64,000 nt of DNA, from positions 26,414,001 to 26,478,000 of the forward strand of contig OZ076409.1 in NCBI GenBank assembly GCA_964187785.1. Reading direction: 5' to 3'. This DNA comes from Amphiscolops sp. MND2022. Lineage: Eukaryota. Made by a program: the position numbers and the translations under genes. Positions 12,956 through 55,196 of this stretch are shown here, piece by piece; the stretch's first letter is position 1, and every line of letters begins with the position of its first letter. The notes under the pieces were generated by a model. The model made no database searches. It was not told the origin of the DNA and worked only from the letters and a program-made list of their open reading frames with translations.

Positions 12956-13259
12956 CTATGCAACACCCCCACCTTCAACAATGTGCATTTTTTATACAGT
13001 TGAGGTGCTTTTTAATGTGCGAGGAAACAAACCAGGAATGGTCTGAGTCGACGCACGTTTAAGTGCGAAGTCTTTCAAATGAACGCAGGGACGCTTTTCG
13101 AAAAATTCTCGAAAATTGCACGATGTCAAAAATATTCAAATGAGGGACACACCATATCTAAGGCTCAAAAATCCAAAAAAGTCTCATATTACTGGAACTC
13201 TGACCCTCGAGCAATACGTAGGACGCAAATTATGTGAAATTTTGGGGAAAAATCGATAA

Positions 13260-33551: not shown

Positions 33552-34832
33552 AAGTAAACGTGTGGTTTGTCGGGACACACGAGGAAGTGAAAGCGAGAGA
33601 GAAAGATGCCGCTGAGCTAATGGCGAGGGTTGAAGTCGGAGAGGAAATAAATCTGTGAAGCATATCTCTGGGAGCTAGTACAACAAACATTGACCAAAAG
33701 CCCATCACATGGAGTGATGCTCCGTCCGCTCAAGAACAGTACAAAATTTTCTCAGATTGCGAAACCGAGCACGTAATAGCCCCGTCTAAACGGAAACAAC
33801 ATCAAGTTGCCTCCAAGAAGAGCTGAAGCTTATGACGGCTGAACTGTCGAAATCGGTTAGTGCTTCGGATACAGTCGTAAAACCTATTTTGGAATAGGTT
33901 TTATTATTTTTTTGTCTGTTTAGAACGAAATACATCAACAAATGTTGCGCAGCACTATGCGTGTGGAGTGTAAAGTTGACCAGTCACGATGTGCGCACGA
34001 GGAGTGCAAAAATCGGTGCCGCAAAAATTTCAAAGATTTTTCATCGATAGTAAGTATCCTAATCGTAGCTTCCAATTCGCTGCAGTACTGGCTGCACTGG
34101 AAAGACAGGAAGGGGTCAGTCACCTCAAACCTTTTCGCTTTGTTGCAGCATTAGCTGTGATATATAGTTCTCGACGTTTTTAGTTTTAAAAAACCAATGA
34201 AATTAAACTTCTCGTGCCTGGCGTTAAGACCAAAGTACAGAATCAAATGATGGAATCGATGACGAAAAACAACTCCTACGTTCCCGCCGCTGAAGACGTT
34301 CCACGTGTGTCCAAGATTTTCAAGGGTGAAGATCTCTTGGAGTGTGCTGGCGATGCTCCGACTTTATACGGTCGCAAAATTGCCCGGAAGCTCTGGTCGA
34401 GAGAGGAACTCAGTAACCCCATTATGTCACCGGGGAAGGATTGGGAGTTCAGGGAGTATCCCCGCAGTCCCATGACTCCAACGCGAAAACTCTCTTCCAT
34501 GGTTAATAGTTTCTTCGCGAGAATTGTTTTCCGGAAGTAAAAAGTTCATGTATCGTTGTAATTTGATATTTTAACCTTAGGTCGATGCATTGTTTAAAAA
34601 AAACGCTAAAGATGCTTGTTCGAAAGTTTTTGTTTCGTTGATATTTTCTCTTTGCTCAGAGCGCGTTGAACACAAGTTCCTTTCCGTTCCGGGATGCTAT
34701 ATCAAGTCCCGCAACAGCGTCGACCATTTGGGAACGGAGCTGAAAAACCGTTCTAAGAATGTGAAGAAGCAATCGATGTCACCGAGCACTTCGACAACAG
34801 GCTCAGCAATGATGTCTCCTGCGGAGGTCCGT
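33552..34832 (+). pseudogene. Second copy of the BEN-domain-like pseudogene
   Basis: Duplicate of 25690-26970 at +7862, with an extra TGA (CTG TGA) at ~33655. Confidence 0.6.
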
Positions 34833-35830
34833 CCGAAAACTTGGATTTGCAGTGTTCAGTGTGCCAATGACGTTATTTGCTGCCTTCAATTTTAAAAATA
34901 ACTCGACTTGAAACTTCTAATAAAATTACATTTTCGTATCATGAAAATCGAAGTTCGAGTAAGATACTGTTTGGGCGTAATGAGCGTTATGTTTTTACTT
35001 CAAAACTGGTTGTGCTCAAGCAATCTAGTCGCAGTGTTTCCACCGCCCGCACTTCTCAACAAAAGAGTTTCACAGTGATTGCAAAAATTCGGTCTACATT
35101 AGAAGGCTTGTAGTACAACACTGGCGGTGCTGTGGTCTGAACAACTAGAATATGATCACAGTTAACGGATATTTCTTACAATCCTAAGAAGGTTATAACG
35201 TGTGAGTCGTCCTTTGCTACATGAGATGTTATGAAAGCAGTGTCTTTGTTTCAAGGTAACTTTATCGATTAATTTATGTTGTATATTTTTGGTAAAGTTT
35301 ATAGCAAGAGAAGAATCAAAAGTGGTTAAATTGGTAGTGAATACAAGTTCGCCATTAGAAGAGTCAGCCGGAGTGTATGATAATAAGGGTGTTTCAAATT
35401 TTACTAAACACGATGATATTTCGAATGACCGTGACGTACTTTGAATATTTTTCGAAAACATGCATTACAGATGTTCTTGGAAATGAGCAAACTATTGTAA
35501 AGAACTGGCTTCAGCTGACGCTTAAGTTACCGCCGATTTTTCAAACGGCTGCAGTGTAACGTCACACAAAGTGTTGCAAGCGAACAAGGAGAACAAAAAT
35601 TCCGAATTGGAAGACCATCGGACTGGAGAGTACCAAACATCGTTGAAAGATTTTTTCCAACCAACCAAGTTCATTATTCACCGGCCAGACAATATACAAA
35701 TCTTGACGTTTTCGCAAGAAGAGATGTGAAAAAGGGTATTCCGATGAACTTAGCTGGGTTGTTGGCTGATATTCAAACATCTGAAGAGTTGCCAGCGCAT
35801 GCTCATGTATCTGTGTTCCAGCGAAAAAAT

Positions 35831-35851
35831 CATTACAAGACACAACTTTCA
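35831..35851 (+). repeat. Left TIR CATTACAAGACACAACTTTCA
   Basis: Exact reverse complement of 55174-55194. Confidence 0.97.
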
Positions 35852-36723
35852 GAGTGCGCGTAAATATACGTGTCTAAAATGCCTAAGTTTTCCTTATAAG
35901 CCAATATGCATTGAAGTATTGGTATTACTGATACATTTTTCAGTTGTTAATACATTACAAATGTATTCAGTTTCCTTAGATTTGATAATTATCAGATTCC
36001 TTATAATTCGTATACAAATGCCTCAAAATGTTTCCCCCCACGTTATAAGTAATCCTAGTACTCAAAACAAGTAATGTTGATACTTTGTATTATAAATCCT
36101 AATACGCTTAAAACTTGTTGAAAATAGGCTTCCTTATACAACTTGTGAGTATTCTTAGATTTCCTGATTTGAATTATAGTATCCATTGCAATATTATTCT
36201 GGTATTATTACAGCCAATGACATATACTGAATCAAATCTCTGTTGATATCTTATTCAATAAAGTGCAAATCCTGAACATTTCTGTATTTGAACCATTTAT
36301 TTGGGCGAATCGGCTGATATCTCATTCAATAAACTGCAAACCTTGAAGAAATCGTATTGTAAATGCCAGGGAATTGGAAATCTTAAACAATTTCGAATTT
36401 GAACAAGGCCATTGCCATGAACATCAATTTTCTCGGCGAGAGTTGGGATCTTCTCAAATCTTGATAAATCAAAGTTACTTCTTATTGGTGTTGATGATTT
36501 TAAATTCTATTTAAATTTAAATATTTGAATACAATTTAAATTCTAGAGCCATGGTATCAAAGAGGTCCCTGATTCAATTGAACAATCCTAGACAACTGAA
36601 AAGACCAAAGAACAAAGACAAAAGATTTTTTAACAAGTGAGCAAAGACAACAGATTTCAACAATAATCAAAATACAACAAAAGTTCAATGTTTTTCATCC
36701 AACAGTTGTGTCTTTTCGTTCAA

Positions 36724-39441
36724 TCAGTTGAACATTTTCCATGCTGCAGGATCGCCATAGTCAAACAGAACCTGGGTGAAAGGGGGAAGGTCTCTGAGTG
36801 CAACCAGTGCCACGTTTCTAGGCTTTTGAGGGAGTTTTCTGCAAACTACTTCCCCCAAGCGGGCTGTGCACTGCTTATTCCTGAGCCTTGAGTGATTGCA
36901 TAGTCTTCCAAGGCACAAATTTCGGGGATGGTGAGGACAGTCCTCATTGGATGCATCGACAAGACGCCTAATGTCTGTTGAAACTTCAATTATATAGGAC
37001 ATGTCACGGCCTGTTCTTGCAGCGTACGAGGCTGCATCCTTTTCGTCAACGAGACAACCATGATAGTCGCAAATGACATCGCCCTTTTTAAACGGCTTCA
37101 GTGTCATCACGCCACGACCCATGTCAGGATATGTGACACAGGTGATCCCGTCCCACGTCTGTGTGTCCTCACGGTGTAAAAAGTCGTATTGCCAACCCTC
37201 GTTGTTTGAGACACTGCTCTTGTACTCCAAGTTCGAATTGAAGGGTGCACCTCGAGGTTTTTGGGCGCTTTTTCCTTCCCGGTAGTCCAATAGAGTTTTA
37301 TGTAGCTTGGATTTGATTTTCCCGTCTTGCCATGACCCAACCTTGCACGTGTTCCACCCTTGTCGGAATGCATGGTCAAAGAAATTGGCATAGTCCGTTT
37401 CGGGATTTGCTTTGATGCGAAACTCATCGGCAAAGGCTTCAACCTGCGTGGAGAAGCGTTCAGTCCTTAGCGTCTGCAATCGTTTAGTGACAAGGTTTGT
37501 CAAATCCTCGAAGTTGACAGCTCTTCCAATTGAATTGTACAACAGATTGGAGACATGCTGCACTGACGGAAAGAGTTCATCCGGCTTGTAAGTTGAAGGT
37601 GTTTTCAGCCTGACGATACGTTTGAGGGCGAAATTCTCATCTCTGCAGTTGTGCCTCAGCTGTAATAAGCAAGAAATGAACAAATTAGACGTAGAGAAAA
37701 TAGATCAAAATTATATTATGTTTTGTTATCTTCCAAGTGTCACCAAATTCCTTAAACAAATATTCAAAGACCCTAAATGTTGCGTGAAAGAGTTTTGGTG
37801 AAAATGGTAGAATAATAGTTTTCGAACACAGAGGAACGATGTTCGAAACTGCCACGAAACGTAAACTATTCCATCATTTTGAAATTTAGTCTAAAATTTC
37901 TCTAAAAACAATAAACAATCCAAACAAATTCCAAAAACAATTTTTTGGCTATTTCATATGTCCCTTTCATATTGCATGAATTCTTAGACTCACTTTGACC
38001 ATCTCTTTCTTTGACTTATCTCGGAAGTTGATAATGGTGTTTCCGGTAGAATTGAAGAAGAAAGGCTCTGTCCAAACCAGCTTCTCACTTCCCTGAAATC
38101 GTGTTTGCATCTGAGGTACTCCAATCTTTGGTTTGAAATTCGGACGTACGTCTGAGTAATAGACTTGCAGGCCCCTTCCCACTATCCAAGAGATTGTGTG
38201 CGATCTGTAAAACGAATTTTGTGACTAGGAAACTAATATTTAGGGAAGTATTTTGACGCTGCTTATTTTTTTGAACTAACTGTTTTCACTGAAGTATTCC
38301 AAGACATTTTTCACGTAAACACTTTTTTTTTCACAGAAATGTTCCATGCAACTAATTTCGAACAATTTTCCACCCACCTGAAACCACCAGGGGTCCTCGT
38401 GTTCGCGCAGGTTAAGGTCACTGTCCCTCGAGTATCCGCCTTGGCTTGAAGTTCCGGGATTGTCTGCGCAAACAAATTCACTGTGAAGGTTTCTAGTTCA
38501 GCTGTTGAACATCTTGGTTCTGCGAACTCCATCAGGTAAACAATTATCAAATTGTGTAACGTCTTCCTGTCAGTGAAGGAGAGGCGAGATGAAAACTCGA
38601 ACTGTTCCACTAAATCTCCCATGAGATCTTCGCATGCATCGGCTGGAAACGCTCGATTCTGGACATAAGCAACATTGATGCTCCTAACGAAACTCTCTGC
38701 ATTGACTTTTTGTCGTTTCGACGCACGTGCTAACTCGTCGTTTTCTTCCTCATTCTGGCACGAATTTTTTCGTTTCCTCCGAACTTCGGAAAGTACTTGT
38801 TGAACCGGATTGCTCTCTGGAGCAGGTTGGAACCGGAATCGAGTTGAAGTGATGGCGTTCATTGTCAGCTCACTCGGCGTTGCAATAAAGTCACCTATCA
38901 TTGAATCGGTCAGCTGAGGAAGAGATGTACTTGGGTTGAGTGGCGTCGAAGTTGGAAGAATGAACTGGTAATCGAAAGAACCATTTACGGCCTGTGTATT
39001 AGCCCGAGGAGTAGCAGGCGGCGTTGGGAGAATTTCAGTCACCCCTCTCAGCAAGTGAGCAGAAGTGCTGAAAGCGGGAGTCTGAGAGAAGATAGGTTGA
39101 GATAAAGATTGTGGAAGCACCAACGATGTTAATTGAGGATCTCCATTCGCAGAAGCCTGTTCCTCTGCAGTTTTTGCAAAATTTGAGTCGACGGAGCTCA
39201 ATTTTTTCAATGCTGGTAATTGAGTCTCTCCATTCTCAGAAGCCAGTTCTTCCGCGGTTTTAGCAAAATTTGACTCGGTGGTGCTCATGATATTCGTTGA
39301 TGGTAAGTGAGAATCTACAACTTCAGGAGCCAGTATTTCTGCGTTTTCAGCGAAATTAGACTCAAGGGTGCTTATCATATTCGTTGATTGAACACAAGGA
39401 ACGAAGTTCTCAAGTTGCAGAACAGGAGTTTGTTGGCTCAT
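36724..39441 (-). CDS. SET-domain lysine methyltransferase (PR-Set7/SETD8-like), 3 exons, ~736 aa
   Basis: Exons 39441-38378, 38204-37994 and 37659-36724 join in frame through GT-AG sites (phases 2, 0). SET motifs MGRGVMTLKPFKKGDVICDYHG, LGRLCNHS, LVALRDL, VLFDYG; no post-SET cysteines. Confidence 0.9.
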
Positions 39442-39916
39442 GTCGGGATGTAGAGTTTTTTATCTCGAAGCAGCAGTTTTGAAATGCAAGTGTTCGACAG
39501 TTAACTGGAGATTGGAATGATATTTACAAGATTATCACTCAAAAAAACTAGTAGGCTCAATTCACACGTAATTGGCTCTAATAGCGCCTGAATTTGAGTC
39601 GACTCTTGATTTGCGTTGCAAGAGTGTTTGATAGAATGCTGAAGATTGGTGTGATAATTACAAGGATTATAACTCTCAATTACTGGTCGGCTCATTTTAC
39701 ACGCAATCGGCTGTAATCACGCCTGAAATTGAGTCGACTCTTGATTGATTACAACTACGCATACATATTACTTTAGTTGATTACAGAACGTTTTTAAACT
39801 GATCTGCTGACTTTTTTAGGCTGACTAAAAAAAACATTTATTCGTGGGGATGAAATAATTGAGGAATTTCAATTTTTGAGTTTTGAAAGTGTCAATTTGG
39901 GTTCCTTTAACAGGGG

Positions 39917-40861
39917 GACTAATTATGTGTCCATCGATTTTCTCAAATAGTAATCGAGACTAATATGTGCATCGACTCTCTTAAACAGTAGTCGAGACTT
40001 ATGTGTGCATCGATTTCCTTAAACAGTATTGCAGACTAATGAGTGCATCGAATTTCTTAAACAGTATTAAAACTAATGTGTGCATCGGTTTCCTTAAATA
40101 GCAATCGAGACTAATATGTGCATCGACTCTCCTAAACCGTAATCGAGACTAATATGTGCATCGACTTCCTTAAACAGTAATCGAGACTAATGTGGGCATC
40201 GACTTTCTTAAACAGTATTAAGACTTATGTGTGCATCGACTTTCTTAAACAGTCTTAAGACTTATGTGTGCATCGACTTTCCTAAACAGTCGTAAGACTT
40301 ATGTGTGCATCGACTTTCGTAAACAGTATTAAGACTAATGTGTGCATCGACTTTCCTAAACAGTATTGAAGACTAATATGTGCATCGACTCTCTTAAATA
40401 GTAATCGAGACAAATGTGTGCATCGACTTTCTCAAACAGTATTAAGACTAATGTGTGCATCGACTTTCTTAATCAGTATTGAAGACTAATGTGTGCATCG
40501 ACTTTCTTAAACAGTCTTAAGACAAATGTGTGCATCGACTTTCCTAAACAGTCATAAGACTTTTGTGTGCATCGACTTTCTTAAACAGTATTAGGACTAA
40601 TGTGTGCGCATCGACATTCTTAATCAGTATTGGAGACTAATGTGTGCATTGACATTCTTAAACAGTATTAGGACTAATTTGTGCATCGACATTCTTAAAC
40701 AGTATTAAGACTAATGTGTCCATCGACTTTCCTAAATAGGAATCGAGACTAATATGTGCATCGACTCTCTTAAACAGTAATCGAGACTAATGTGTGCATT
40801 GAATTACTTAAACGGTATTCGATAGTAATGTGTGCATCGATTTCCTTAAACAGTATTCCAG
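39917..40861 (+). repeat. 39/40-bp tandem array A (GACTAATGTGTGCATCGACTTTCTTAAACAGTATT(A/G)(A/G))
   Basis: About 24 contiguous degenerate units, no unique spacers. Confidence 0.95.
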
Positions 40862-41814
40862 ATGATTGTGTAAAGTGTAGAACAGGCATCAATTTTGTTC
40901 AACAGTACTCGACAGAACACAATTGATCCTACCAAAGTTTGCAATGCGCATTCAACTGTCATTGAAAATACCACAAGTAACGACAGTGCTGAAATTTGAT
41001 TGGTTGAAATGCTGAGATCTTCTGACCGCTAAGAAAAGGCATCGACTATTTTGTAGAAATGGCTTCAATTTACTTGAACTTTTTTCAAAATTGAGCGTGC
41101 GTCTGATTTATTTTACATTGACATTTCATTGTTTCAAATTCAGCTGCCTTCATTCATTAATTTCAAAAATTTAAACAAGCATCATCTCACTTTACTTCGC
41201 ACATCAACTTGTTTAACCTGTTGATCTGTTACTTCTCGGCTTTAGCTAACTAATCCTGTATTCTGTATCAATGTATTCTGTATGCTGTATCCTGTATCCT
41301 AACTAATAATGCCTGTATGCGATGGTAAGTTAAACAACTCTGCAATTTTGCTATATATGTATAGGGCTTTGTAAAAGATGACCTATCAAGCAATAGTCTA
41401 CGATGAAAAGATGGTACATCTTTTTACGATGAATTGAGTTATATATTACAAGGAAATATAGTGCAACGAACTGAGTTATGTCTATTTCACGCCTAGAGAT
41501 AATCAGAGTCTATTTACCAAATAGGCGTATAACTAACTAATCTGCCTTTTCAGCACAAATTTGCATGTAATTATTGCTTATCGCAAAAGCTTGGATCCTT
41601 CTATTTTTTCTGTTGTAACGAGAAACCTTGAATAATATAACAATTTTTCGACAATGTAAATAAACCCTTTTAACAGAATTTCTATTTTTTGGTTCAATCT
41701 TATTCAGTCTTGTATCTTTATATCCACAATTTTTATACTACAATTATTTCATGAAGTTTTGGATCTTTTCTGTTAGTTACAACCCCACCCACAGATTCAA
41801 TACCCCAATAACTG

Positions 41815-42610
41815 GCCAAAAAAGTTTTATACGGGAGAGCACAAAAATCGAAGCCAAAATAATGTTCCGTTGAAGCCTCCGGCATGTGTACATGTCAATT
41901 TTTGGAATCCTTTGATGAATTTAGAACCTCCCATTTCAGATTTAATAAAAAATTTTTCCCAGTGTTTCAGTTTTTCTCTATGACGTACATCAATATCTGG
42001 CCAAAAAAAAGCTTTTACGGAAAAGCACAAAAATCGAAGACAAAATAAAGTTCTGTGAAAGTCTCCTGCATGTGTGCATGTCAATTTTTTGAATCCCTAG
42101 ATGTATTTAGAACCTCCCATTTCAGATTTAATAAAAAATTTTCCCAGTGTTTCAGTTTTTCTCCATGACGTACATTAATAAGTGGCCAAAACAGTTTTTT
42201 ACGGAAAAGCACAAAAATCGAAGACAAAATAAAGTTCTGTGAAAGTCTCCTGCATGTGTGCATGTCAATTTTTTGAATCCCTAGATGTATTTAGAACCTC
42301 CCATTTCAGATTTAATAAAAAATTCTCCCAGTGTTTCAGTTTTTCTCTATGACGTACATCAATAAGTGGCCAAAACAGTTTTTTACGGAAAAGCACAAAA
42401 ATCGAAGACAAAATAAAGTTCTGTGAAAGTCTCCTGCATGTGTGCATGTCAATTTTTTGAATCCCTAGATGTATTTAGAACCTCCCATTTCAAATTAAAT
42501 TAAAAAACAAAAATCGAAGCCAAAATTTGTTCATTGAAACCTCCTGCATGTGTACTTGTCATTGTTTTGAACACCCAATCTGGTGTAATTTGGACCTCCC
42601 ATTTTGCATC
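41815..42610 (+). repeat. 184-bp tandem repeat (~4.5 units) upstream of the JmjC gene
   Basis: Period of 184 (e.g. ORFs at 42081 and 42265). Diverged inverted copies at ~44230-44560. Confidence 0.9.
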
Positions 42611-42748
42611 CAATAAATTTTTATTCTTTAGTTTTAGTCTCTTGTGGGGAAACAAATCCATTATTGGCAATTATTCAATTTTTTTTCAACGACTTCTTGA
42701 TGGGCCGCATGTGAGGTATTTTATGAATCGATTGTTGATGCTTTTAGA

Positions 42749-45700
42749 TTGTGGAGAGAGTTTCAAAAACGCCAAGACCCTGAAGCAGCACAGACGCCGG
42801 GGTAATGTGTCACATTGCGTTTTGAAAGCAGCTGAAGATTTGATAACGAAAAACAAATGGAAAACATGCATGTTTTGTGGCATGAAAGGCACTGCCAAGA
42901 GGGACAAAGATGGTGAAATGAAATTTTTCGAGTTTACCTGTCCCGCGGCAACTGCTCAGCATGCTTTAAACTACGACTGCAAATGGCAGCGAAAGCAAAT
43001 CGAAGATTCGAATCCACAGGCGATTATGAACAAGACGTACAAGGATTTTCAGGAAAGGGATTTCAAAGACCCAGACTCTTATGCTGATGAGTACTTGGCA
43101 GCAACTCGAGAAGTTGTCCAAGCGCTGACGCATGAAAAACAAGTTTTCAAATACACTCTAATGAGGAAAGAGGCATTCCTTCCTCTGAATGTGGACCACT
43201 ACAAAAAAGGACATAAAGCAGGTGCCAGCTGGGCTGACTATGGAAGCAACGTAGCCGCTCGGTCGTCCACGGGTAAAACGAATTATCAAATTACAAGAGA
43301 CTACACTGGCTCTCATTCTGTAAAGGAGCTGGATCCAACTCCACCGTTAGGAAGAATGTCTGGCACTCGTTAGTGTTGAATAAGTTTTTCAGTTCAATTC
43401 CCGACTGCATGTGAAATTAAATAGGACTTTCACTGCTTTTCTTGTTAGTAGTGTCTTCAGCGGCAACAACGACCACGAGAATGCCAAAGCCCGGAAGAAG
43501 GAGAGCAATATCTTGTTAGTACTTCGATGGTTATCTGATGTTCAACTTATTAAGATGTTCAATGCGTTTTTTACGTAATTGTTTTCAGGTTCGTTAACGA
43601 CCACGGGAACAACAACGCCTCGCAAAAGAAGAGCAACTTCTTGTTAGTAATTCGATGCTTCAGTGATGTGGTTTTGATTAGGTTTTAGATGCTTTTCTTG
43701 ACAATAGTGTTTTCAGCGCTGATAACGACCATGAGAATGCCGAAGCTTCGAAAGAGAAGAGCAACCTCTTGTTAGTATTTCGAAGTTTCACTGATGATGA
43801 TTTGATTAGTGTTTTCAACGTTTTGCTTGATTTATGTTTTTTCAGCCTCAAAAACAACAACGAAACTAACATCGCCCCAGAAGAGAAAGGCAACATTGTG
43901 TTAGTTTTTCGAAATTCGAAAGAAGTTGTATTGATTATGATTTAATGCTTTTCTTGAAAATGTTTTTAGCCCCGATAACGACAACAAGTATGACGACTAC
44001 AAAAATGACAAGAACGGCCGCGAATCCCAGCATATGCGGTCCCTTTGGGGAAGCTTCAACAAAAGATAATTGCGGTAAACCAAAACTTTTATTGCTAATG
44101 CTTTGAAAGAGTCTTTTGGGAAAACGTTTTCAAAAAACAAAAAAATGAAACTTCAAAAAATGTTGTAACAATAAGAGTACCAATGAATAGAACAACTCTA
44201 AGTTCAGTTAAGCAAAAAATAGCTTGATTACTTGCAGGAGACTTCAAATGATAATAAGTTTAGCTTGTCCGTTTTTTTTTAGATTTTACTGAACAATTAT
44301 TGGAATACGGCATGAAAGAGAAACAGAAAAACCTGAAATTTTTTTCCTTCAAATTGAATTGGGAGGTTCTAAATTCTTTTCCGGATTTGAAAAGAAGAGC
44401 TTGTTTATTTGCAAGAGACTTCAAATGAACATAAGATTGGTTTCAATTTTTGTGCTTGTTCGCTTTTTTTTAGTTTCCAGAACAAGTTTTGGCGTACAGC
44501 ATGAACAAAAATCGAGAAACCTTTTTACCTTTAATTTTGAATTTTTACATTTAGTTTGAAATGGGATTTATTATTCAGCTTCAAAATATTAGGGATATAA
44601 AATAAAGTTATTAGATTTGTTAGTTTTTTGAAGTCTTATTGATGTTGAATTGAATAAGATTTTTACTGCCTTTCTTAACAAAATTGTTTTCAGCCCCGCT
44701 AACGGCCACTAATCTTCTTCGTACTGCTTCTCCTCCTCCTACACCTGGTCCTTCTCGTATGGATTCTCCGCCTCCAACACCTGGTCCTTCTCGTATGGCG
44801 TCTCCTCCTCCTCCTCCTCCTCCTCCTACACCTGGTGCTTCTTCTTCTATGGCGTCTCCCCCTCCTACACCTGCTCCGTCTCGTTTGGACTCTCTTTTTC
44901 GTACACCTGGTCCTCCTCTTGCTCCGTCTTCTCGTCCTACACTCTTTCCTCCTCTACCTCCCCTCTTTCAGAAGGCTAAAGCAAGGAAGCGGAGTCCACG
45001 AAAATCCCTGACTCCAAAGAAACGTACGTATTATTTTTCCACTTTATATCCGGGGAAATGTACTAGGTATTTTAAATATTTCCTAAAATTTTTGTTTTGG
45101 AAATGATAGTCTGTGTTGACATTTGTTTTTGTGCTAAGGTGCCGTTCCTCCTACCGGCGGGCCCATTACTCCTGCAAAAAAGCGGAATCCAAGAAAATCG
45201 CCGACCCCGAGACGAACTCTTCCAACACAATCTTCTTGCAGCTATGATCGTACGTGGTTTTTTAAAAAATCTATAAACATTTAAGGACATTTTATAGGCA
45301 ATTATTTTTAAAAAATGTAAGCCTTTATTTTCCTAAACAACTGAATATTAAACATTGGCAATTGAAAAGTTGATTTCTTGTAGTGTCCTATCTTTTGATT
45401 TCGTGTGTTTTCAGCGATCAATTCAATTGACCCTGATGGCTACCCAACGTTTAGCGACGCCACAGAACTGCGCCAACTGGTGGAATGGTTGCCGATGGGC
45501 AAAGAGGGCATAGACTACTTGCAATACAAAGCCGAATTCTTTGATCAAAACTCAGCGCTTTTGAAAACGGCTCTAAAAGGAATTGTGAAGAAGCCGATGT
45601 TGATAGTTGATGCTCTCAGACTGAAGGGCTTCTCACACAAATTTGCAGCTGGAGACCTCAAACTTACCGATGAACGTTTATTCAGAGCAGTATTAGCGAA

Positions 45701-47089
45701 AGAAGATCCAAAAATGACAGTAAACTGCAGTTGGCTAAAGGGAGTAAGAAACTTTTGATTATTTTCTCAAATGAATGCTTAACCAACGTAGCGGTTGATT
45801 AGAAATCCTGAAAAATGACACATCTAAAGAAACTTGATACATTTATCATGTATAAATAGAGAAAAATGTATCAGTAATACACATTCTTCAAAGCACTTTG
45901 GCCTATAAGAAAACCTTATACACTTTAGACACTGAGCGTGAATTATCACTGTCAACAAGTTTCCAAGTCAATGTAGGATGAAATATCATCGGCAATAATT
46001 CTCCAGCCTTTTTTGTTAGAGTTATATTTCACTATTACATCTTTGTTAATTTTTCAGCACGAGTTCGAAATTGAGACCATGCCTCTGAAAACCTATTTCC
46101 TCAAGTTCGATCTCTCCAGACCAATGAACATCATTGATCTGAACGCAACAACAAGCAACAGTCTGCAGTTCGAGCCTGCGAACTTTGTGAAAGAAATCTC
46201 CTTGGGACACAAATTGCAAATGAGACTCCCAAGAGATAAGAGCAGCGTCTGGAAGCTAAACTACGTCATCCTCAGTCAAGCTGGGTGTTTCGCTGACTGG
46301 CACGTGGACTTCAGTGGAACCTCTGTGTTCTACGTCCTCCTTGCCGGAGAAAAAGAGTTCGTTTTTGTGAACGAGACCGGCAAGCTTGGTGAAGGACTGG
46401 CCAGCTTTCAGTCATCTAGGACAACGACATCCGTTAATAGGTTCTTCGGAGGCAGAAGAGATCTTCAGGCCTACAGAATCACTTTGAAAGCCGGACAGGG
46501 CGTTTTAATCCCAGCAGGAACGCTCCACTTCGTGTCCACAATAGCGAACAGTGTGGCTGTAGGGACAAACTTCTTGACTTTTCAGGAATACCGTTAGTAT
46601 CTCATGTTGGCAAAAGTTTGAATAAAATTTTGAAAAAGGTGGCTCCAAACTTATGATCATAAGACAGTATTGATTATTTTTCTTTTATTACTTAATGTTC
46701 AATGAATATTTAAAAAAGTTTTCTTTCCAGCTGCAGCACTCAATGAATTCATGAAGGAGAGGATCAGGAAGGTCAGATATTGCAAATGTTTTCCCCATTT
46801 TTGTCACCTGTCTGCTGCCATGGTATCTGAGTTTGTCCGTCGATGCAAACAAGCGAAATTTAACAAGCAAGCATCCCCACACCCCATTAACGAAGAAGGA
46901 GAAATATTTTGGCAAATTTGGACTATACATGAAGGCTATTCCTCAATGCTACCCAATTCCATGCGTAACGGGATCCGAAGATCGTTCCGTGCAAGTTTGA
47001 GTGAAGTCGCGAAATACAATACAGATATACCGCAGTACCCCAAACTCCCGGAGATAATCGAATACATGAACACCATGTGTGGCTTCTAA
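42749..47089 (+). CDS. JmjC histone-demethylase-like protein (KDM7/PHF8/KDM2-like) with Cys/His-rich N-terminus and basic/Pro-rich linker, ~860 aa; 5' end not determined
   Basis: In-phase exons ~42749-43368, 43461-43514, 43589-43642, 43717-43770, 43846-43899, 43970-44074, 44694-45023, 45139-45249, 45415-45719, 46058-46592, 46731-47089. JmjC motifs NYVILSQAGCFADWHVDFSGTSVFY..GEK..LIPAGTLHFVST..AVGTNFL (HxD..H intact), followed by FPHF. Confidence 0.9.
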
Positions 47090-47266
47090 ACCAGGGGTTT
47101 ATTTGAAAAAGAAGAAATAGTTCTTTGTTTTTGTTGAAACATATACCAGTAAGATTTAGATTTCATTAGAACTTGTTACTTTGCGACCTTTGCACAGGTT
47201 AATTCTGTTTGAAAACAATCTTTGTTTTTGTTGAAATTTGTACCAGTAAGATTTAAGGTTGAACTC

Positions 47267-48633
47267 CATCGACTTTTTTAAAAAGTATTCGAGACTAATA
47301 TGTGCATCGACTCTCTTAAACAGTAATCGAGACTAATATGTGCATCGACTTTCTTAACCACTATTCGAGACTAATGTGTCCATCGACTTTCTTAAACAGT
47401 CTTAAGATTAATGTGTGCATCGAGTTTCTTAAACAGTGTTGGAGACTAATGAGTGCATCGACTTTCTTAAACAGTATTAGGACTAATGTGTCCATCGACT
47501 TTCTTAAATAGTAATCGAGACTAATATGTGCATCGACTCTCCTAAACAGTAATCGAGACTAATGTGTGCATCGACTTTCTTAAACAGTATTGGAGACTAA
47601 TGAGTGCATCGACTTTCTTAAACAGTAGTAGGACTAATATGTGCATCGACTTTCTTAAACAGTAATCGAGACTAATGTGTGCATCGACTTTCTTAAACAG
47701 TATTGGAGACTAATGAGTGCATCGACTTTCTTAAACAGTAGTAGGACTAATATGTGCATCGACTTTCTTAAACAGTAATCGAGACTAATGTGTGCATCGA
47801 CTTTCTTAAACAGTATTGGAGACTAATGAGTGCATCGGCTTTCTTAACCACTATTCGAGACTAATGTGTCCATCGACTTTCTTAAACAGTCTTAAGATTA
47901 ATGTGTGCATCGAGTTTCTTAAACAGTGTTGGAGACTAATGAGTGCATCGACTTTCTTAAACAGTATTAGGACTAATGTGTCCATCGACTTTCTTAAATA
48001 GGAATCGAGACTAATATGTGCATCGACTCTCCTAAACAGTAATCGAGACTAATGTGTGCATCGACTTTCTTAAACAGTATTGGAGACTAATGAGTGCATC
48101 GACTTTCTTAAACAGTAGTAGGACTAATATGTGCATCGACTTTCTTAAACAGTATTGGAGACTAATGAGTGCATCGGCTTTCTTAACCACTATTCGAGAC
48201 TAATGTGTCCATCGACTTTCTTAAACAGTCTTAAGATTAATGTGTGCATCGAGTTTCTTAAACAGTGTTGGAGACTAATGAGTGCATCGACTTTCTTAAA
48301 CAGTATTAGGACTAATGTGTCCATCGACTTTCTTAAATAGGAATCGAGACTAATATGTGCATCGACTCTCCTAAACAGTAATCGAGACTAATGTGTGCAT
48401 CGACTTTCTTAAACAGTATTGGAGACTAATGAGTGCATCGACTTACTTAAACAGTAAGAGGACTAATATGTGCATCGACTTTCTTAAACAGTAATCGAGA
48501 CTAATGTGTGCATCGACTTTCTTAAACAGTATTAGGACTAATGTGTCCATCGACTTTCTTAAATAGTAATCGAGACTAATATGTGCATCGACTCTCCTAA
48601 ACAGTAATCGAGACTAATGTGTGCATCGACTTT
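47267..48633 (+). repeat. 39/40-bp tandem array B (same family and orientation as array A) with a 339-bp higher-order repeat
   Basis: About 34 units; identical ORFs at 47816 and 48155 show the 339-bp higher-order duplication. Confidence 0.95.
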
Positions 48634-48860
48634 GCCTCTGAAAACATATTTCCTGTGAGATTTCTTGTACCAGTAAGATTTAGATTTAATTAGAACTTGT
48701 TGCTTTGAGCCCTTTGCACCAGTCACTTCTGTTTGAAAACAATCTTTTGTGTGCAGATTTTTTTTCGATTATTTAAGACTAGGGTACATTATAGAAATAC
48801 AACGTCACAAAGGGAACAACATTTAAAACCAGCATTAATAACGAAATTAGGATGTAAAGT

Positions 48861-51800
48861 TCAAAACGATGACGTCTCATCTTTTTTTGTATGTCTTTTG
48901 CCAAATATCTTCTCGATGTCTTGTGTGAGGTTTGAGTAGTTTTGCTTCCGAAATTCTTTGATAAGGACAAACGGGCCTTTGGTAACTCCTTCAATTATTT
49001 CTTTGGCCTCGCATTGTCGTTTGAACAAGGGCTTCATGTCACGAATGGGCACTATTGGTATGTCATTTCCTGGTTTTATTTCATAGTTAGCTGGATCAAG
49101 CAAAGTACGTTTGTTCAAGCAATCAACAACAAACTTTACGTTCAAAAAAACAACTCCCGATTGTACATAACATCTTAACTTTAAAGCTCTTTCCTTTTTT
49201 TCGACAATTTTTTCACGTTTCTCCATTGGTCGGCCAACCCCTGGTTCTCCAGTTGCTATTCTAAGATCTGTTTCATTTTGTACTAAAACATAGCAAAACG
49301 GTAGATGGGAGTGCTTTTCAGTCAGTGTTTTCAGGGCATCTTGGGTCATTACCAGGCCGCCACATTCGAGAATCATCTTGTTCACTTGAACCTGCGTTAG
49401 GTTAGCTTTTCGAAAATCTCCAAATACGGTGAAACGTAGGCCTAGAAAAATCGAATCTTTCTCGCAAGGTGTATCGATTTGAATAGTCCTCGCTTTAATT
49501 GTTTTCCTACATATCCATAGGTAATCTATGTGGAAAGTTGGAATTGGCCGGAAGATACTGCGGAGCTGCATCATACACTCTTCAAAAGCGATTTGTTGCT
49601 TGCTGTGGATATAACATCGAAAAAACGACAAAACCAGATCTTGAAGCATGGGATCAACGTGAAGTAGTTTACCTCCCCCGCGCATTGTCTTTTGATGGTA
49701 GAATTGATGTGCTCGATGATTCGAGTGCTCCATTGCTTCGGTTAAGTGGTCCCAAGGTGACCGAATACAACCCGATTCGACCAATTTGGGAACAAGAAGG
49801 ATTTTCACTTTATATGGCGTAACTTCGCCAAAGAAAGCCATTGAGATATGATAATATGTCTCCGCCCAGAAATTGTATTCATCAATGAGTTTTTGAGGGA
49901 AACCGTTTTTCGAACCTCTGAGAATAATGTTCATATTGTTCAAGGATTGCCGCCATAGCTCTGCGGCATCGTACTTTGACATCAAATACCGTTTTGTTTT
50001 GTCTTCAAGTAATACTTCATGCTTGAAAAGTGTTTTGTGACACAGTTTAAGAGTTTCTAGGTTAGCCGGATGGCCCACTAAGTACTCGTTTTCTTTGAAG
50101 ACATTATCAAAAAGGTTGCTTTGTATTCCACTGTCGCTTCCAAATTCGTCCCGATGAGCAATCGCGAGCAGGGCTTCTTTTCCACTTAAAGACACAGAAT
50201 TGCAACTAGTTGGTCCGTTTTTGCTTGTATTGATATTAAATCTGAACCTGGGCTCCTTCACTCCTCTCTCGGTTAAATTGGATTCGAATAGGTTCAAAAC
50301 GGTGTAAATTGTTTTCCCGCGGGTCTCAATTAGTAGATTGCAAAACTTTTGCAAGTCATTCTCAACCATTCTTGTGATACCATGGCAAGTGTCAACGCAA
50401 ACTCTTCGGATGTCGTCAAGATAAACCAGGGAAGTTGACGGTAACACCTGCCAGGGTATATTCAGCGTTGTCCGTTTCTTCGTTTTGGGATCAACTGTCG
50501 TTGACAAAAAAGGTTGGAAAACTTTCTTTCCATCTTTAACGTCAAAACCAATTGACGACTTTTTGCCAACATAGATTGCGCATTTGGAGTCGTCTTCAAC
50601 GTTGTCACCATTAACCAATCGCATTACAAATGGCTGATCGCCGGACAACGTCAGTTTCACTTTGTAGTCCTCGACCAGCGTCTTTGTCTGCTGGTAAAGC
50701 CATCCACTCTTTTGAACTCCAACTTGTGTTGGGCCGAGGTTTTGTTCCATTGCAAATCTGCTATCATGACCTGCAAACATGTGCAAAACAGTCTCGTATC
50801 TGCATCTTTGGTACAAAAATATTTGATATAGCATGTTTTTGAAGAAAAGTTCTAGCGAATTGCTTATATTAATGCAAGTATTTACTTCTTTATTGAGGCT
50901 GGTAAACCAATGAGATTAATGTGAGAAAAGTTTCTTGATATTTTTTAAAAGATTTTCCGGGACAAAATTTGAGAAAGTTACAAACAGCTGATTTCGAGCT
51001 AATTCGGGACTTATTTCCGTTTTTCCAATTTTTTACCGTTTAATGCACAATTTCCTTCGCAAGTGTATGGTCAATTAACTCACATAATTCAAACGAATCT
51101 ATAGATCTTTTTCATATTCAAAATATATCAACAGTTTTCGAATCAGTTTAGTTGAATATAAAGCATCGACTGCGGTTCTACAGTTCGTTTGAAAAACAAA
51201 AAGGACTCGTTTAAAACAACAAATGTTGTTCACAACTGTATTCACATATGTAAAAACTTGAGATAGACAATAGATTTATCCACTACATTAAAAGCGCTTG
51301 AAAACATTCCATTATAGTTTGTTAATATTGCTACGCAACTCGTTTTCAGTTTAACATCTTTGCTTAGTTTAAACCATTGATTTTCTTGAACACTTTAGTT
51401 GAATAGAAAGTATTCATTTTTCCTAACAACGTTCAATCACTTTTGCACAAACCTTTGAAGGAAGCAAATGTGAAACATGCATCTGAAGATTGTGGACTGA
51501 TTTTCCCTTTTGTATCAAGAAATCGGAAAACCATTCTCGTACACTCCGAGTTCCCAATTTCAACCCCGTCACCCCAAAGATCAACTGCAACACCTTCTAA
51601 CGATTCAATTCCCGTCAGAAGGTAGTGAGAGGTTCTCACTAAGGTAATCAAATCGGCTCTAAAACCTGAGGTCTTCTCCGGTTGGAATATGTTGTAATAA
51701 AAGCAATGTAGAGGATTTGACAATTTGTTTAATGTTGTAACACTGGGAACTAACTGATCATTTCTTATGCCCTGTAAGTCAAATAAAGTCTTGAGATAAC

Positions 51801-52497
51801 CGACCAAATCAACAACATTACCAGTTTTCTTGATCAAATACAAATGCTCCATGAATTGATGGGTGTATCTCGAAGGGAACAGTGCTTTCATGATTTGTTT
51901 CAAATAATTAGGCCGTTGTACAAGTTTTTTTTCGGTAGCAATATAGGCTTTATTTTTCAAATGTTGAATCAAACTCCCAATTTCCAAATCTCGATTGTTC
52001 ATTTGATTCAACACATCACTCCAGAAATGATTGCTACTAGTACAAAAAGCGGGCTCGTGTAAATCCGAATTTTTTGCTATTGGTGGTTCTCGATTCTCCA
52101 GTTTCCGTAAGAATTTGCTAATTTCCGAGTTGTTTTCTACTGGCTTTCCGTCTGGAATGAATTCTGGGCCGAAGAAGTGTGCAACAAAGCGTCGGCGACG
52201 ATCTGTCCACGATAGGCCAGTGAATCCTTTAAAGACAAGCAAGAGTGCAATTTTGAATACCACAGCATTGTATTTTGCTCGTCTACCTGTCTCATTGCGC
52301 GTTGCACTGATGAAAACATCGGTGAATTGAACGTTTGTGCCATTCAAGAGACAAGTGATTGCTGGTTTCACTTTCCTTTGCTTGTCATTTATTGTTTCTT
52401 CTGCTAAGTAGTCGAATAACGATAAATCAACATACAGGCCTTCTGGCAAATTGATTAGGTGTTTTTTCAGAATTATCTCCTCATTGCAATAACTCAT
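48861..52497 (-). CDS. RAG1/Transib/Chapaev-like DDE transposase with C-terminal BRCT domain, 2 exons, ~984 aa
   Basis: Exons 52497-51453 and 50770-48861 join in phase 1 (FKG|HDSRF). Motif order DLWGDG, LSGDQPF, CVDTCHG, VTPY..LVP, TEAMEHSNH parallels RAG1 D600, D708, DALH, TNY..HVP and E962. C-terminal IFLGLRFTVFG..MILECGGLV..KFVVDCL..LLDPANY is the BRCT pattern. Confidence 0.8.
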
Positions 52498-52839
52498 TGT
52501 AATACCGGGACCGCTTTTAAGGAATAGGATTTCGAAATAAATGGGAAAACGTTTACCAAAATTAGCAACATTCACATTTGAGGCTTACTACATTCTTATA
52601 CGCTTATCCGCGTTAACGCTTTCATCGAAAAGAGAAACAGGTGCCGTAGATTTACATTTGGTGTCAACGGACTCACATTGCAACATCATCAAAAATCTGA
52701 GTCTAACACCAGAACTGAATTGAGGCAAATTATGACTTGCGAAGACGCAATTTAAAAGCATTCAGAAACCGTAAATTTCATTTTCCACTCTTCGCTTTAC
52801 CTCGAATCAAATTGGTCAATCAATTTTGAACAATCAACA

Positions 52840-54421
52840 ATGCTTTTTGCCAATGTTTTCTTCCAGACTAAGCCAGTCGTTCAAGCTTTGGATCCTGACA
52901 CTCAAATCTGGGAGGAGGCTAAAATCGAAGGTTTTGAAGGCACCAATCATGTTCGTGTTAATTTTACGCGCTGGGGAAAAAACAAGGACCCTGTTCGGGT
53001 TCTTTTTTGTGACCCCCAAGTTCATCTTGAAAATTGGCCAGTCAGGAAAGCTCTTGAAGAAGTTCTATTTCCCAGACGACACAATATTGATTACAAACTG
53101 GATTACACTAAGGAAAAATTCGCAAAAGGCGATATAGTATATTTTGTTGGGTCGACTGCGCCATCGGTTGGTGATATTATGGAGCCTTGGGAGATGAAAC
53201 AAATGATCCAAGAAGCATCAGTTTTGAAATCTGGAACTGTGCTAATCAATGATAGGTTTAGAAAAACTTTGCTGATTTGCTCCAATGTGGAGAAGTTTTA
53301 TATTTCGTACAACCAGTTGAGGAACTCTGACTGGCAAAAAGAAGGAATAGCTGACGAAGAAGAAATGATACCAATCCCAGTTGCCAAAAAATTGAAAGTT
53401 GAAGTGAAAGCTGTAGTGAAAGAGAAACAGTCGAAGATCAACATTGGAGACATTTTGCGGGCATTGTGCGGATCTGACGAAACCGTTAGCCTGACACTTG
53501 TTCCCACTACGAACGGAATACTAGCAGCAGGATCACGTGTTGTAATAGACTTGTCACAGACGGGGGTTGTACGAAAGCTTTTTTTTGACCGCAGGGAGGC
53601 GCACGCGATGGCAGAAGTAACTTTAGACGGGAGTAAGAGATACATTGGACTGCCAGCCACAGAAGTTCGACTGTCAGTAGACCCCAATCAATCACTTAAG
53701 AAGCAACAGGAAATCAATTATATGAAATCCCCAGAACTCACAGTGAGGAACCCTAACTTGCACCCAGTTGATGAAGTTTTCACAGTGTTTTCCGCCATCA
53801 AACGGGAACTTTTCCTCTCTTACGACACAATCAGCCACACAGAAATAATATACAGTCCTGTGCCATTTTACATTAGGCAAGTTTTGGGCTGTGAATCGTC
53901 AAGAGATTCGGTAAGCATATGCTAATTGTCAAAGTAGTTAATAGCATCATTGACAACAAGTCTTTGAAAACACTGTGGAGTGTAATTATTGAACTTCCCA
54001 GGGCATTGAAAATCTTGAACAATTTTTTAATCCAGCGTTGCAACTCCAAGGGCTTTCATAACTTTCAGCAATTTTGTATCTGAAGACTATACATGAAACC
54101 TTCATCAAGCGTTTGTTTTATAATTGTATTTCATTAGTTTTCTTCCATTGGCAGAAATTCACTATCAACGAGGAGCGGGGATCGCATGGAAACAAAGTGT
54201 TTGATGAAATTCTCGGTAAGAAATGGGATCTCCTTGAAACCAGGCCGGATGCTGAGAAGTTTTTCAATCATGTCCTCTTGGGGGTGCGGTTCAAAGTAAA
54301 AACCAGTCTCGCTTTTGAAGCCCTCAAAATTCAAGTTCAAGGACACAGAGGAAACTACGAGGACTATGAAAACTATCGCGAGTTAATCTCGAAAAACACA
54401 AAAACCTCCTTGGCAGCTTGA
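52840..54421 (+). CDS. Accessory protein, ~445 aa, 2 exons, with N-terminal Tudor/chromo-barrel(MBT)-like domain
   Basis: Exons 52840-53910 and 54155-54421 join in phase 0 (TCG|GTAAGC, GCAG|AAA). N-terminus VQALDPDTQIWEEAKIEGFEGTNHVRVNFTRW resembles Royal-family EAxD..WYxAxI....vxvhFxxW. The gene call is firmer than the domain call. Confidence 0.7.
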
Positions 54422-55173
54422 TAACTTGTGCATTTTCAATTATTCGTTTCTGTTTTTTGATGTAAATTTTGGTTACTTTGATATTCGTTAGATCATATTA
54501 ACATTTACTTTTACCAATAAATAAATTCGAGGAATTAGATAGCTCTTGATTCGATTTTTGTCGTTGAATTATTTCAACTACTTCTGAGGAAAAATGCTAA
54601 GCTGGTAGAGAGTGAAATTTACAATGAGCAAGAGGAGGCATCGGAATTCTTAAACAATTTTACAGGACAAAGTGTATAACTTGTGATTTAAAAAACTTCT
54701 AATTGTGTATCAAAATTACTTTATTAAAATTACTGTGAATCAGCGAATTGCTGCAAGCGACTGCAAACGCATTTTCGTCAAAACCACAATAACATGCGTT
54801 TTTATTAGGATTACTAAAGATTAGTATAAGAAATCCTATTTGTGTATAATGAATCCTTTTTGTGTATAAGAAATACTGTTTGTCTATATGTTCTCCGCGG
54901 AAATAGTATAACTTATACTTGACACTAGTATAAGAAATCCTTATAATGGGGATATTTATGGATATTTATTAGAAATCCTAATAAGTCGCATTAGGTTTCC
55001 TGATAGTAGGTATATAAAATCCTCCGTTTTCACCAAATATTAAAAATCCTTAAATTTTCGAAAAAGTTAAAACATACAAATAGGTAATAATAATACAAAA
55101 AATAATACATTAGGGGCCAGTGAAAATTCCCTTGTGGAGCATTTAAGGATATTTAATAAACTTTTGAGGCTCG

Positions 55174-55194
55174 TGAAAGTTGTGTCTTGTAATG
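55174..55194 (-). repeat. Right TIR
   Basis: TGAAAGTTGTGTCTTGTAATG followed by the AT TSD. Confidence 0.97.
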
Positions 55195-55196
55195 AT

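Follow-up and report, generated by a model that had tools for sequence, protein, structure and literature searches.

The window analysed here is a 64,000-nucleotide stretch of the 1.07-Gb genome assembly of Amphiscolops sp. MND2022 (C1:26414001-26478000), and it contains a DNA transposon of ~19.4 kb at positions 35831-55194; all coordinates of the element are given as window positions. Four genes lie between its ends (Table 1): a transposase gene, a SET-domain gene and a JmjC-domain gene, which encode a candidate writer and a candidate eraser of histone lysine methylation, and a gene for a Tudor-like protein that may be a reader of such marks. The transposase and putative reader genes are divergent (head to head), with starts 342 bp apart.

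Table 1. Features of the transposon and of its immediate borders (window positions; TSD, target site duplication; TIR, terminal inverted repeat; ORF, open reading frame).
Feature	Position	Strand	Remarks
Left TSD copy, AT	35829..35830	.	inverted-repeat search; single AT at empty paralogous sites
Left TIR, 21 nt, begins CATTACA	35831..35851	+	100% complementary to right end
SET gene, 736 amino acids	36727..39441	-	predicted exons 39441-38378, 38204-37994 and 37659-36727, GT..AG model
SET motif LFDYGD	36751-36768	-	FDY aligns with KMT5A
SET domain	36754-37119	-	Pfam, in ORF 36727-37704
SET motif RLCNHS	36889-36906	-	aligns with KMT5A
Tandem array, 38-bp unit, ~25 copies	39925..40862	+	length differs between copies
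Tandem array, 184-bp unit, 3.8 copies	41806..42507	+	tandem-repeat search
289-amino-acid ORF, Cys/His zinc-finger-like motif	42504..43370	+	weak zf-C2H2, E 0.024
72-nt inverted copy (83%) of left subterminal 35870-35941	45861..45932	-	just upstream of JmjC exon
JmjC exon	46058..46592	+	ORF 45977-46594; strong acceptor at 46058
JmjC motif WHVDF	46298-46312	+	HxD of metal triad
JmjC second His, in GTLHFV	46517-46534	+	metal triad
Tandem array, same 38-bp unit as 39925..40862, period 113, 12 copies	47267..48633	+	adjoins JmjC gene
Transposase gene, 984 amino acids	48864..52497	-	predicted exons 52497-51453 and 50770-48864, GT..AG intron 51452-50771
BRCT domain	49080-49451	-	C-terminal in transposase
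Transposase motif TEAMEHSNH	49716-49742	-	conserved in alignment
Transposase motif SGDQPF	50628-50645	-	conserved in alignment
Transposase motif DLWGDGVE	51559-51582	-	conserved in alignment
Putative reader gene, 445 amino acids	52840..54418	+	predicted exons 52840-53910 and 54155-54418; first ORF 52756-53922
Tudor-like beta-barrels	52873-53049 and 53107-53334	+	predicted model
Subterminal cluster, five AAATCCT repeats	54831..55050	+	5 of the window's 19 matches within 220 bp
Right TIR, 21 nt	55174..55194	-	inverted-repeat search
Right TSD copy, AT	55195..55196	.	flank reading; empty paralogous sites

The ends of the element form a 23-nt perfect inverted repeat (35829-35851 and 55174-55196) composed of a 21-nt TIR, CATTACAAGACACAACTTTCA, and a palindromic AT, in agreement with the perfect 21-bp TIRs and the AT duplication that an earlier inspection of the sequence alone (hereafter, the sequence-only reading) had proposed. 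The termini read CATTACA...TGTAATG, i.e. they are of the CA..TG type, both in the family represented by the window element (family 1) and in a second family described below (family 2). Three paralogous sites that are free of the element (window 27947, 30409 and 57637) read ...CCAGCGAAAAAATGAACAATTG...; because these uninterrupted units carry one AT only, the AT on either side of the element is a true target duplication. Joining both flanks restores a continuous open frame that is interrupted by the element.

Genome searches were made with the first and the last 300 bases of the element, and the best 40 of 186 left-end candidates and the best 40 of 179 right-end candidates were scored. Among the 40 matches listed for the left end, 16 are 100% identical and 24 are 86–93% identical, the corresponding numbers for the right end being 15 at 100% and 25 at 93–96%. 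A perfect right end was found as partner, on the contig and strand concerned, for 15 of the 16 perfect left ends; the remaining one (on contig C12) has no partner among the listed right ends. Fourteen of these pairs, the window copy included, are spaced by 19.36–20.18 kb and one by 1.67 kb. The genome contains at least 14 full-length copies, located on six chromosome-scale contigs with unrelated flanks, and the two flanking dinucleotides match in all 11 copies for which both flanks were read (AT, GC, AT, TC, TT, CA, CA, AA, TA, AT and TA). The further full-length copies with differing 2-bp TSDs anticipated by the sequence-only reading are therefore present. Nine full copies were fetched, all collinear with the window copy: eight align with it end to end at 99.47–99.86% identity, and the ninth, whose right end lies outside the fetched stretch, is 98.5–99.0% identical. 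Length variation between copies is confined to two tandem arrays, and outside the arrays (~10.3 kb, 45 pairs) the copies differ pairwise by 0.09–0.33% (median 0.18%). The 1.67-kb copy, in which element positions 1-962 are joined to 18658-19364, has its own TSD (TC) and is a typical deletion derivative mobilised in trans. Together these copies show that the whole 19.4-kb unit moves with its cargo, as expected of the TIR- and TSD-bounded transposon postulated earlier, that the deletion derivative was mobilised as well, and that the element is currently or very recently active. In the 10 copies examined for coding capacity, the SET and JmjC exon models are each intact in nine, the reader model in seven and the transposase model in four; three copies, the window copy among them, have all four models intact.

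The element is inserted into a ~48-kb local tandem array (window 26454-35830 and 55195-64000; C1:26440454-26488014) of decayed SET-like ORFs that are 76–98% alike and many of which contain stops. These ORFs are unrelated to the SET gene of the element (E 0.61) and show a weak likeness to KMT5B/SUV420H1 (E 0.02); a few loci ~70% alike to the array occur on other contigs. A 475-amino-acid open frame (window 11550-12974, minus strand), also outside the element, has no Pfam match.

Single database proteins of 1000–1100 amino acids span both ORFs of the transposase gene (51436-52584 and 48864-50915, minus strand), and the in-frame intron join recreates the ...FASYRGKDSRF... stretch of these homologues, giving a model without stops; among the four genes, a splice junction backed by homologues is available for the transposase only. 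A profile search of 1.84 billion cluster representatives identified 584 relatives at E <=0.001, including 187 at E <=1e-30. The motifs (V/I)D(I/L)WGDG.E, T.SGD.PF, CPD.TH and PWDH..E..E.SNH...TMRGGG are conserved in a 23-sequence alignment, and the window copy has them intact. Together with the residues preceding it, the last of these motifs may resemble the region around the third catalytic residue of RAG1. Pfam scans assigned no family to the window transposase or to nine long homologues, a weak BRCT match excepted, and a scan of eleven long relatives gave no further domain. Neither phmmer nor the 23-sequence profile found a RAG1 chain in the PDB; the profile matched only a phycobilisome-linker-like stretch (E 4.2e-7) and the BRCT domain of PARP1 (E 0.16). 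The former match joins profile positions 45-151, in the N-terminal region, to the cyanobacterial phycobilisome-linker repeat protein 9k9w, and two transposase homologues show weak PBS_linker_poly Pfam hits. The genome has no match to PF00502 (phycobiliproteins), which is uninformative alone. A language-model look-up of the transposase placed a RAG1 cluster at rank 8 (score 0.76) and is regarded as a lead only, and a look-up of the clusters of its NCBI and JGI homologues yielded no names.

The fold was assessed with an AlphaFold2 model of the homologue P0013, which is 36% identical to exon 2 of the window transposase; its mean predicted local distance difference test (pLDDT) score is 69.5, rising to ~90 over residues 310-930. 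Foldseek ranked mouse RAG1 first for this model (E 1.2e-6), followed by HzTransib (4.3e-5), BbRAGL (1.8e-3) and Hermes (0.055). In VIA-align, model residues 212-790 superpose on RAG1 459-1008 with Z 17.3 (412 aligned residues, root-mean-square deviation 4.2), and the scores for HzTransib, BbRAGL and the P element transposase are Z 15.3, 15.3 and 9.9, respectively. Residues 835-999 match the BRCT domains of 53BP1, XRCC1 and ligase IV at Z 9.0–9.9. With the BRCT_2 profile, the family 2 transposase scores 27.6 bits against a cutoff of 27.3, and the window copy remains below the cutoff with 21.5 bits. At the level of the homologue model, these comparisons show that a DDE transposase with a RAG1/Transib core fold and a C-terminal BRCT domain lies between the perfect CA..TG ends.

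For the classification of the element, we relied on the available parts of two sources. The first unites EnSpm/CACTA, Mirage, Chapaev and Transib with Plavaka, ESTA and Lanisha in the CMC-Transib (CMCT) clade, whose members have motifs in common with RAG1, CA..TG termini and TSDs of 2–5 bp (Kojima 2025, PMC12730594). Our element resembles them in its 5'-CA..TG-3' termini, in a TSD within this range and in a transposase related to RAG1 by fold only. It differs in that the transposase alignment does not show the exact spacings C(2)C and H(3-4)H; its 23 sequences have C-x-C-P-D-x-T-H (C-x3-C-H in the window copy) and an invariant S-N-H beside the E motif. According to the second source, canonical Transib elements have a 5-bp TSD and a CACAATG-like heptamer, whereas CACTA/Mirage/Chapaev (CMC) elements have TSDs of 2–4 bp, and 3-bp and TA duplications are reported as exceptions within Transib (10.64898/2026.08.26.747230). 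Because of these exceptions, a 2-bp TSD alone does not settle non-Transib status. Compared to Transib and RAG in the strict sense, however, the element has not only a 2-bp instead of a 5-bp TSD, but also CATTACA ends unlike CACAATG or CACAGTG, and it shows no sequence match to RAG1/Transib in the Pfam scans or in the phmmer and profile searches of the PDB. No Kelch/PHD RAG2-like gene was found in a Pfam scan of the 25 ORFs of at least 70 amino acids in the element. With RAG1, Transib and ProtoRAG (BbRAGL) the transposase shares the core fold over ~400–420 residues (Z 15.3–17.3) and a DDE triad of similar spacing, but it differs from them in its C-terminal BRCT domain; the putative chromatin-reader gene beside the transposase gene is comparable to the RAG1/RAG2 pair by analogy. 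Placed by its ends and 2-bp TSD, the element belongs in the CACTA/Mirage/Chapaev-Transib clade and not in Transib or RAG proper. The term RAG1-like, given to the element by the sequence-only reading, thus describes the build of the enzyme and not family membership, because the fold matches (RAG1 Z 17.3) but the strict Transib/RAG features fail: the TSD, the ends, a sequence match and a RAG2-like gene.

The writer and the eraser foreseen by the sequence-only reading were both recovered above the Pfam cutoffs. The SET match (PF00856) scores 43.2 bits versus a cutoff of 22.4 (E 5.7e-11), the SET ORF has 14 PDB matches, each of them to KMT5A/SETD8 (best E 2.2e-10), and the DYHG, NHS and FDY motifs line up with KMT5A. 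The JmjC match (PF02373) scores 28.6 bits versus a cutoff of 24 (E 2.1e-6), with the HxD..H triad in place, and all 14 PDB matches of this ORF are KDM7, PHF8, KDM2A or PHF2 (best E 1.3e-16); families 1 and 2 both retain H109, D111, the 2-oxoglutarate (2OG)-binding lysine K126 and H184. The earlier claim of four multi-exon genes without stops stands as regards the open frames of the window copy and the predicted transposase, SET and reader models, but the outer exons of the JmjC gene are not settled. Candidates for its flanking exons are found within ORFs 45399-45755 and 46706-47086, and searches of the PDB with the ORFs on either side of the JmjC exon returned no match. The upstream one, ORF 45399-45755 (plus strand), contains ...KLTDERLFRAV..., which may resemble the arginine patch of ParB N-terminal domains; when the upstream ORFs of the JmjC gene were searched against Pfam and the PDB, no ParB match was obtained. 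The 289-amino-acid ORF further upstream could either belong to the JmjC gene as a 5' exon or represent a fifth gene. Its zinc-finger-like motif is common to a family 2 ORF (score 64 vs 36.7 +/- 6.2 for shuffled sequences, maximum 61).

The putative reader gene has no Pfam match even at E 10. Its model, built from 10 sequences, has a pLDDT of 48 as a whole and comprises two barrels, residues 12-70 and 90-165, with pLDDT 65–85. A structural search among 48,161 chains returned mostly Tudor, chromo-barrel, MBT, PWWP and Agenet domains, as well as KOW and SH3 barrels; the best matches are the TDRD3 Tudor (Z 5.3), SMN Tudor (5.0), MOF chromo-barrel (4.9) and UHRF1 (4.7), all of them below the level of 8 at which the tool is to be trusted. 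Among language-model look-alikes that bear a family name, Tudor or Agenet proteins prevail (0.83–0.85; a lead only), and W24, F32, W45 and W66 are conserved in the reader alignment. Structural comparison thus bore out the sequence-only reading for the RAG1-fold transposase, by way of the homologue model, while for the reader it gave matches only at Z <=5.3. Of the proposed Royal-family reader, there remain weak barrel-fold and language-model leads against the lack of a Pfam hit; because of this lack, the low fold scores and language-model evidence that amounts to leads only, the reader role is plausible but not shown. Word-indexed homologue searches with the reader and SET ORFs gave close relatives only (3 and 5 proteins, respectively), so there is no cross-species support for the cargo.

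Family 2 is represented by an element of 18,948 bp (C1:6284908-6303855) with 20-nt perfect ends, CATTACAGTGGGGTAACCGG, and a TSD of AG; over 3 kb, at least 26 copies are ~100% identical. The four genes of the window element recur in it with order and strands unchanged, including the head-to-head arrangement of the transposase and reader genes, and Pfam finds SET, JmjC and BRCT in it. Identity to the window element is 32% for SET (E 6e-42), 28–39% for the ORFs upstream of SET (E 1.1e-7 to 1.7e-8), 38% for JmjC (E 1e-32), 29–37% for the transposase (E down to 6e-86), and 29% (E 4e-21) and 23% (E 1e-8) for the first and second reader ORFs. Because transposase and cargo have diverged alike and conservation extends outside the catalytic domains, both families would fit descent from one ancestral element that already carried the gene set.

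Purifying selection keeps the transposase and the three accessory genes. The ratio of nonsynonymous to synonymous substitution rates (dN/dS; Nei-Gojobori method), calculated between subfamilies with dS of 0.3–0.5, is 0.12–0.15 for SET, 0.20–0.24 for JmjC, 0.18–0.22 for exon 2 of the transposase and 0.12–0.13 for the reader, with the exception of SET pairs that include the decayed copy C1_30.3 (0.19–0.37). Close pairs (dS <0.05) give values of 0.09–3.5, mostly near or above 0.6, as expected of decay after insertion. All cargo ORFs are present in the young copies, and the diverged subfamily copies retain transposase and cargo together. Neutral evolution of the cargo, named in the sequence-only reading as a possible outcome, is therefore not observed: the cargo values are as low as that of the transposase, and the gene set is kept in the second family.

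Further related loci were found in the genome. At C10:35452800-35470400, a C2H2 ORF, which lies upstream of the JmjC gene as the zinc-finger-like ORF does in the window element, is accompanied by JmjC, reader and SET genes (the latter a 680-amino-acid ORF) in another arrangement. A transposase is absent from the 17.6 kb of this third locus, in which a retrotransposon (gag ORF) is nested; it was not counted as a third mobile family. Similar reader-SET pairs occur at C10:35.40M and C2:76.35M. In addition, a further transposase family of ~41% identity, with single ORFs of ~1175 amino acids (e.g., C1:61038713-61040266), has at least 40 copies.

Several repeats lie between or beside the genes. The array adjoining the JmjC gene (47267..48633) is enlarged in the 20.2-kb copy, and the Tandem Repeats Finder consensus of the 38-bp unit holds a short inverted repeat, TCTTAA-N6-TTAAGA. 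The cluster of AAATCCT repeats near the right end represents putative binding sites. The inverted copy of the left subterminal region at 45861-45932 could suggest a composite of two elements, which was rejected as a recent event in view of the collinearity of the copies and of family 2; family 2 has a comparable internal arm (its positions 12065-12136 vs 1843-1913).

As to the host, the nuclear-receptor zf-C4 domain has 26 matches in the genome (E down to 3.8e-28), and since this domain marks metazoans, the host is an animal, a result together with which the lack of a PF00502 match is to be read. To our knowledge, few transposons carry enzymes that act on epigenetic marks, namely VANDAL, elements with TET/JBP genes, SET-bearing Harbinger and MuDR families and the Plavaka elements of red algae. 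Comparisons to these systems are made here as the available parts of the cited sources describe them. DNA transposons with epigenetic accessory genes are already known, and the red-algal Plavaka elements are a close published analogue. Giant Plavaka elements (EnSpm/CACTA clade) of florideophyte red algae are 17.4–19.1 kb long and carry three accessory genes, PAG1-3, among them a DNA methylase fused to SET (PAG2), a ParB-like plus 2OG-oxygenase gene beside tandem arrays (PAG3) and one gene of unknown function; these genes are conserved across florideophytes and proposed to aid proliferation, and the authors suggest that the element modifies its own chromatin (10.1101/2025.02.11.637652). The PAG3 oxygenase is invisible to InterPro, the nearest structure by HHpred being 2OPW at E 0.016 (10.1101/2025.02.11.637652). 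The window element is alike in size (19.4 kb), in a DDE transposase of the same broad clade accompanied by three accessory genes, in their nature (one SET, one 2OG oxygenase beside tandem arrays and one without a known domain) and in their being kept across families, the comparison being by description and not by sequence. The 38-bp arrays (39925-40862 and 47267-48633) recall those beside PAG3. It is unlike Plavaka in its animal host, in SET genes with SET only instead of a fusion to the N6-adenine DNA methylase described for PAG2 (PF01555, for which the genome has 0 matches at E <=1e-5 among 5 candidates scored), and in an oxygenase that is a Pfam-level JmjC of the KDM7/PHF8 type, with no ParB-like N-terminus such as that of PAG3 detected by Pfam and PDB searches. 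The two cassettes may reflect either common ancestry or parallel origin.

Other precedents are more distant. HarbingerS and Phytophthora MuDR families carry a SET gene (Repbase Reports 2014, cited in PMC12730594) and are in this respect similar DNA transposons, but they belong to other superfamilies with a single chromatin gene, and no JmjC or reader is reported for them in the available part of that source. Fungal KDZ, Plavaka, ESTA and other elements carry TET/JBP, and VANDAL has the anti-silencing gene VANC (PMC12730594); like our element, these have an accessory gene acting on epigenetic marks with a presumed anti-silencing role, whereas they target DNA methylation and the enzymes found here are of the histone-lysine type. 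Chromatin domains fused to transposon proteins occur in many eukaryotes (10.1101/2021.11.30.470311), and EnSpm elements of Chondrus crispus are 16–20 kb long with 4–5 ORFs (PMC6431247, citing Repbase Reports). A search of the literature, in which Repbase Reports and the supplements of the Plavaka preprint were not covered, revealed no element that combines SET, JmjC and Tudor-like genes. The sequence-only reading, which knew of no described element with this combination, is thus upheld for the trio as such but has to be qualified by the close precedents in SET-bearing Harbinger and MuDR families and in giant Plavaka.

We consider it probable that the window element is a cut-and-paste transposon of the CACTA/Mirage/Chapaev-Transib clade, autonomous and active at present or until very recently, and that its accessory genes act on histone methylation on behalf of the element. 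The transposase would cut at the CA..TG ends and join them 2 bp apart, and the accessory genes would serve the element rather than the host, their products acting on the methylation of histone lysines at the element, in its vicinity or at its excision and insertion sites. Their most likely role would be de-repression or access, with the KDM7/PHF8-type JmjC enzyme removing repressive methyl marks from the chromatin of the element, while SET and reader proteins may be responsible for setting and recognising a mark by which the transposase or double-strand-break repair is guided. The purposes put forward by the sequence-only reading (anti-silencing, target selection or repair steering) are likewise inferences.

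Several observations weigh against this interpretation. The Royal-family assignment of the reader (Z <=5.3, pLDDT 48) is weak. The fold evidence comes from a 36%-identical homologue of another source and not from the spliced protein of the window itself, and the substrates of the SET and JmjC enzymes are guessed from their nearest solved relatives at ~30% identity. The splice models and the expression of the four genes are unproven predictions. In place of the NHS of SET domains, the SET protein of family 2 reads NYS. The transposase model contains frameshifts or stops in six of the ten near-identical (>99%) copies (C10_4.51M, C2_85.78M, C6_0.08M, C4_9.27M, C1_98.45M and C4_67.06M), which could be due to rapid decay, to selection against an active transposase or to homopolymer errors in the assembly. 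Finally, there is no cargo hit near the ~41%-identity transposase family among the matches listed, which argues that the cargo is not needed for transposition as such.

A more specific role, which we regard as unlikely, would be the steering of repair: SET would write, JmjC erase and the Tudor-like protein read methylation of H4K20 or a similar residue around the excision break, and together with the BRCT domain of the transposase they would direct the end-joining of RAG-type hairpinned or blunt ends. KMT5A/SETD8 is the H4K20 monomethylase and PHF8 removes H4K20me1, so that the exclusive matching of the SET ORF to KMT5A/SETD8 and the best JmjC matches to KDM7/PHF8 point in this direction, as do the 53BP1 tandem Tudor in the fold list of the reader (Z 4.2) and the best BRCT matches (53BP1, XRCC1 and LigIV, Z 9–9.9). 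However, specificity cannot be read from identities of ~30%, the Tudor matches, weak as they are, do not single out 53BP1, and KDM7/PHF8 enzymes act on H3K9me2 and H3K27me2 as well.

It is unlikely, in our view, that the Tudor-like protein is a RAG2-like cofactor through which a histone methyl mark is connected to the RAG1-fold transposase, be it for choosing targets or for activation, with SET and JmjC tuning this mark. The PHD finger of RAG2 couples RAG1 to a histone methyl mark, and a comparable coupling would agree with the RAG1 fold of the transposase model, with the low dN/dS of the reader and with the divergent arrangement of the two genes, whose starts lie close together and which is kept in family 2. 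Against it, the reader has neither a Kelch nor a PHD domain, and the third locus pairs reader and SET genes without a transposase in 17.6 kb. An equally doubtful and more far-reaching view would see in the element an independent and still mobile "RAG1 plus chromatin reader" machine, with a long-carried writer, eraser and reader, the Tudor-like protein as the RAG2-like cofactor and the BRCT domain linking it to end-joining repair.

A chance capture of host genes (SET, JmjC and Tudor-like) that are of no use to the element, as in Pack-MULEs, appears very improbable. DNA transposons do capture host genes, and the related ~41% family seems to be without cargo among the matches listed, but the between-subfamily dN/dS of the cargo (0.12–0.24) is as low as that of the transposase, the four genes and their orientation are kept across families at 29–38% identity, non-domain regions being conserved too, and near-neutral close copies (0.6–3.5) are the pattern expected if selection acts only through transposition. 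A segmental duplication or host gene cluster with chance inverted repeats, for which nothing speaks beyond the size, is already refuted by 14 dispersed copies on six contigs with unrelated flanks and varying 2-bp TSDs, by the empty paralogous sites and by the terminal deletion derivative, leaving it a negligible chance.

The interpretation that we prefer, an active transposon with accessory genes acting on histone methylation for its own benefit, is of interest because of its animal host, a trio of writer, eraser and probable reader under selection, an unannotated transposase with a RAG1 fold and BRCT domain, and copies young enough to be tested. The element would offer a testable system in which to ask in what ways histone methylation is manipulated by a mobile element, be it to evade silencing or to direct cutting and repair. 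Its transposase family, with 584 cluster representatives and no Pfam model, widens the set of relatives in which the evolution of RAG-type recombinases and their dependence on chromatin readers may be studied.

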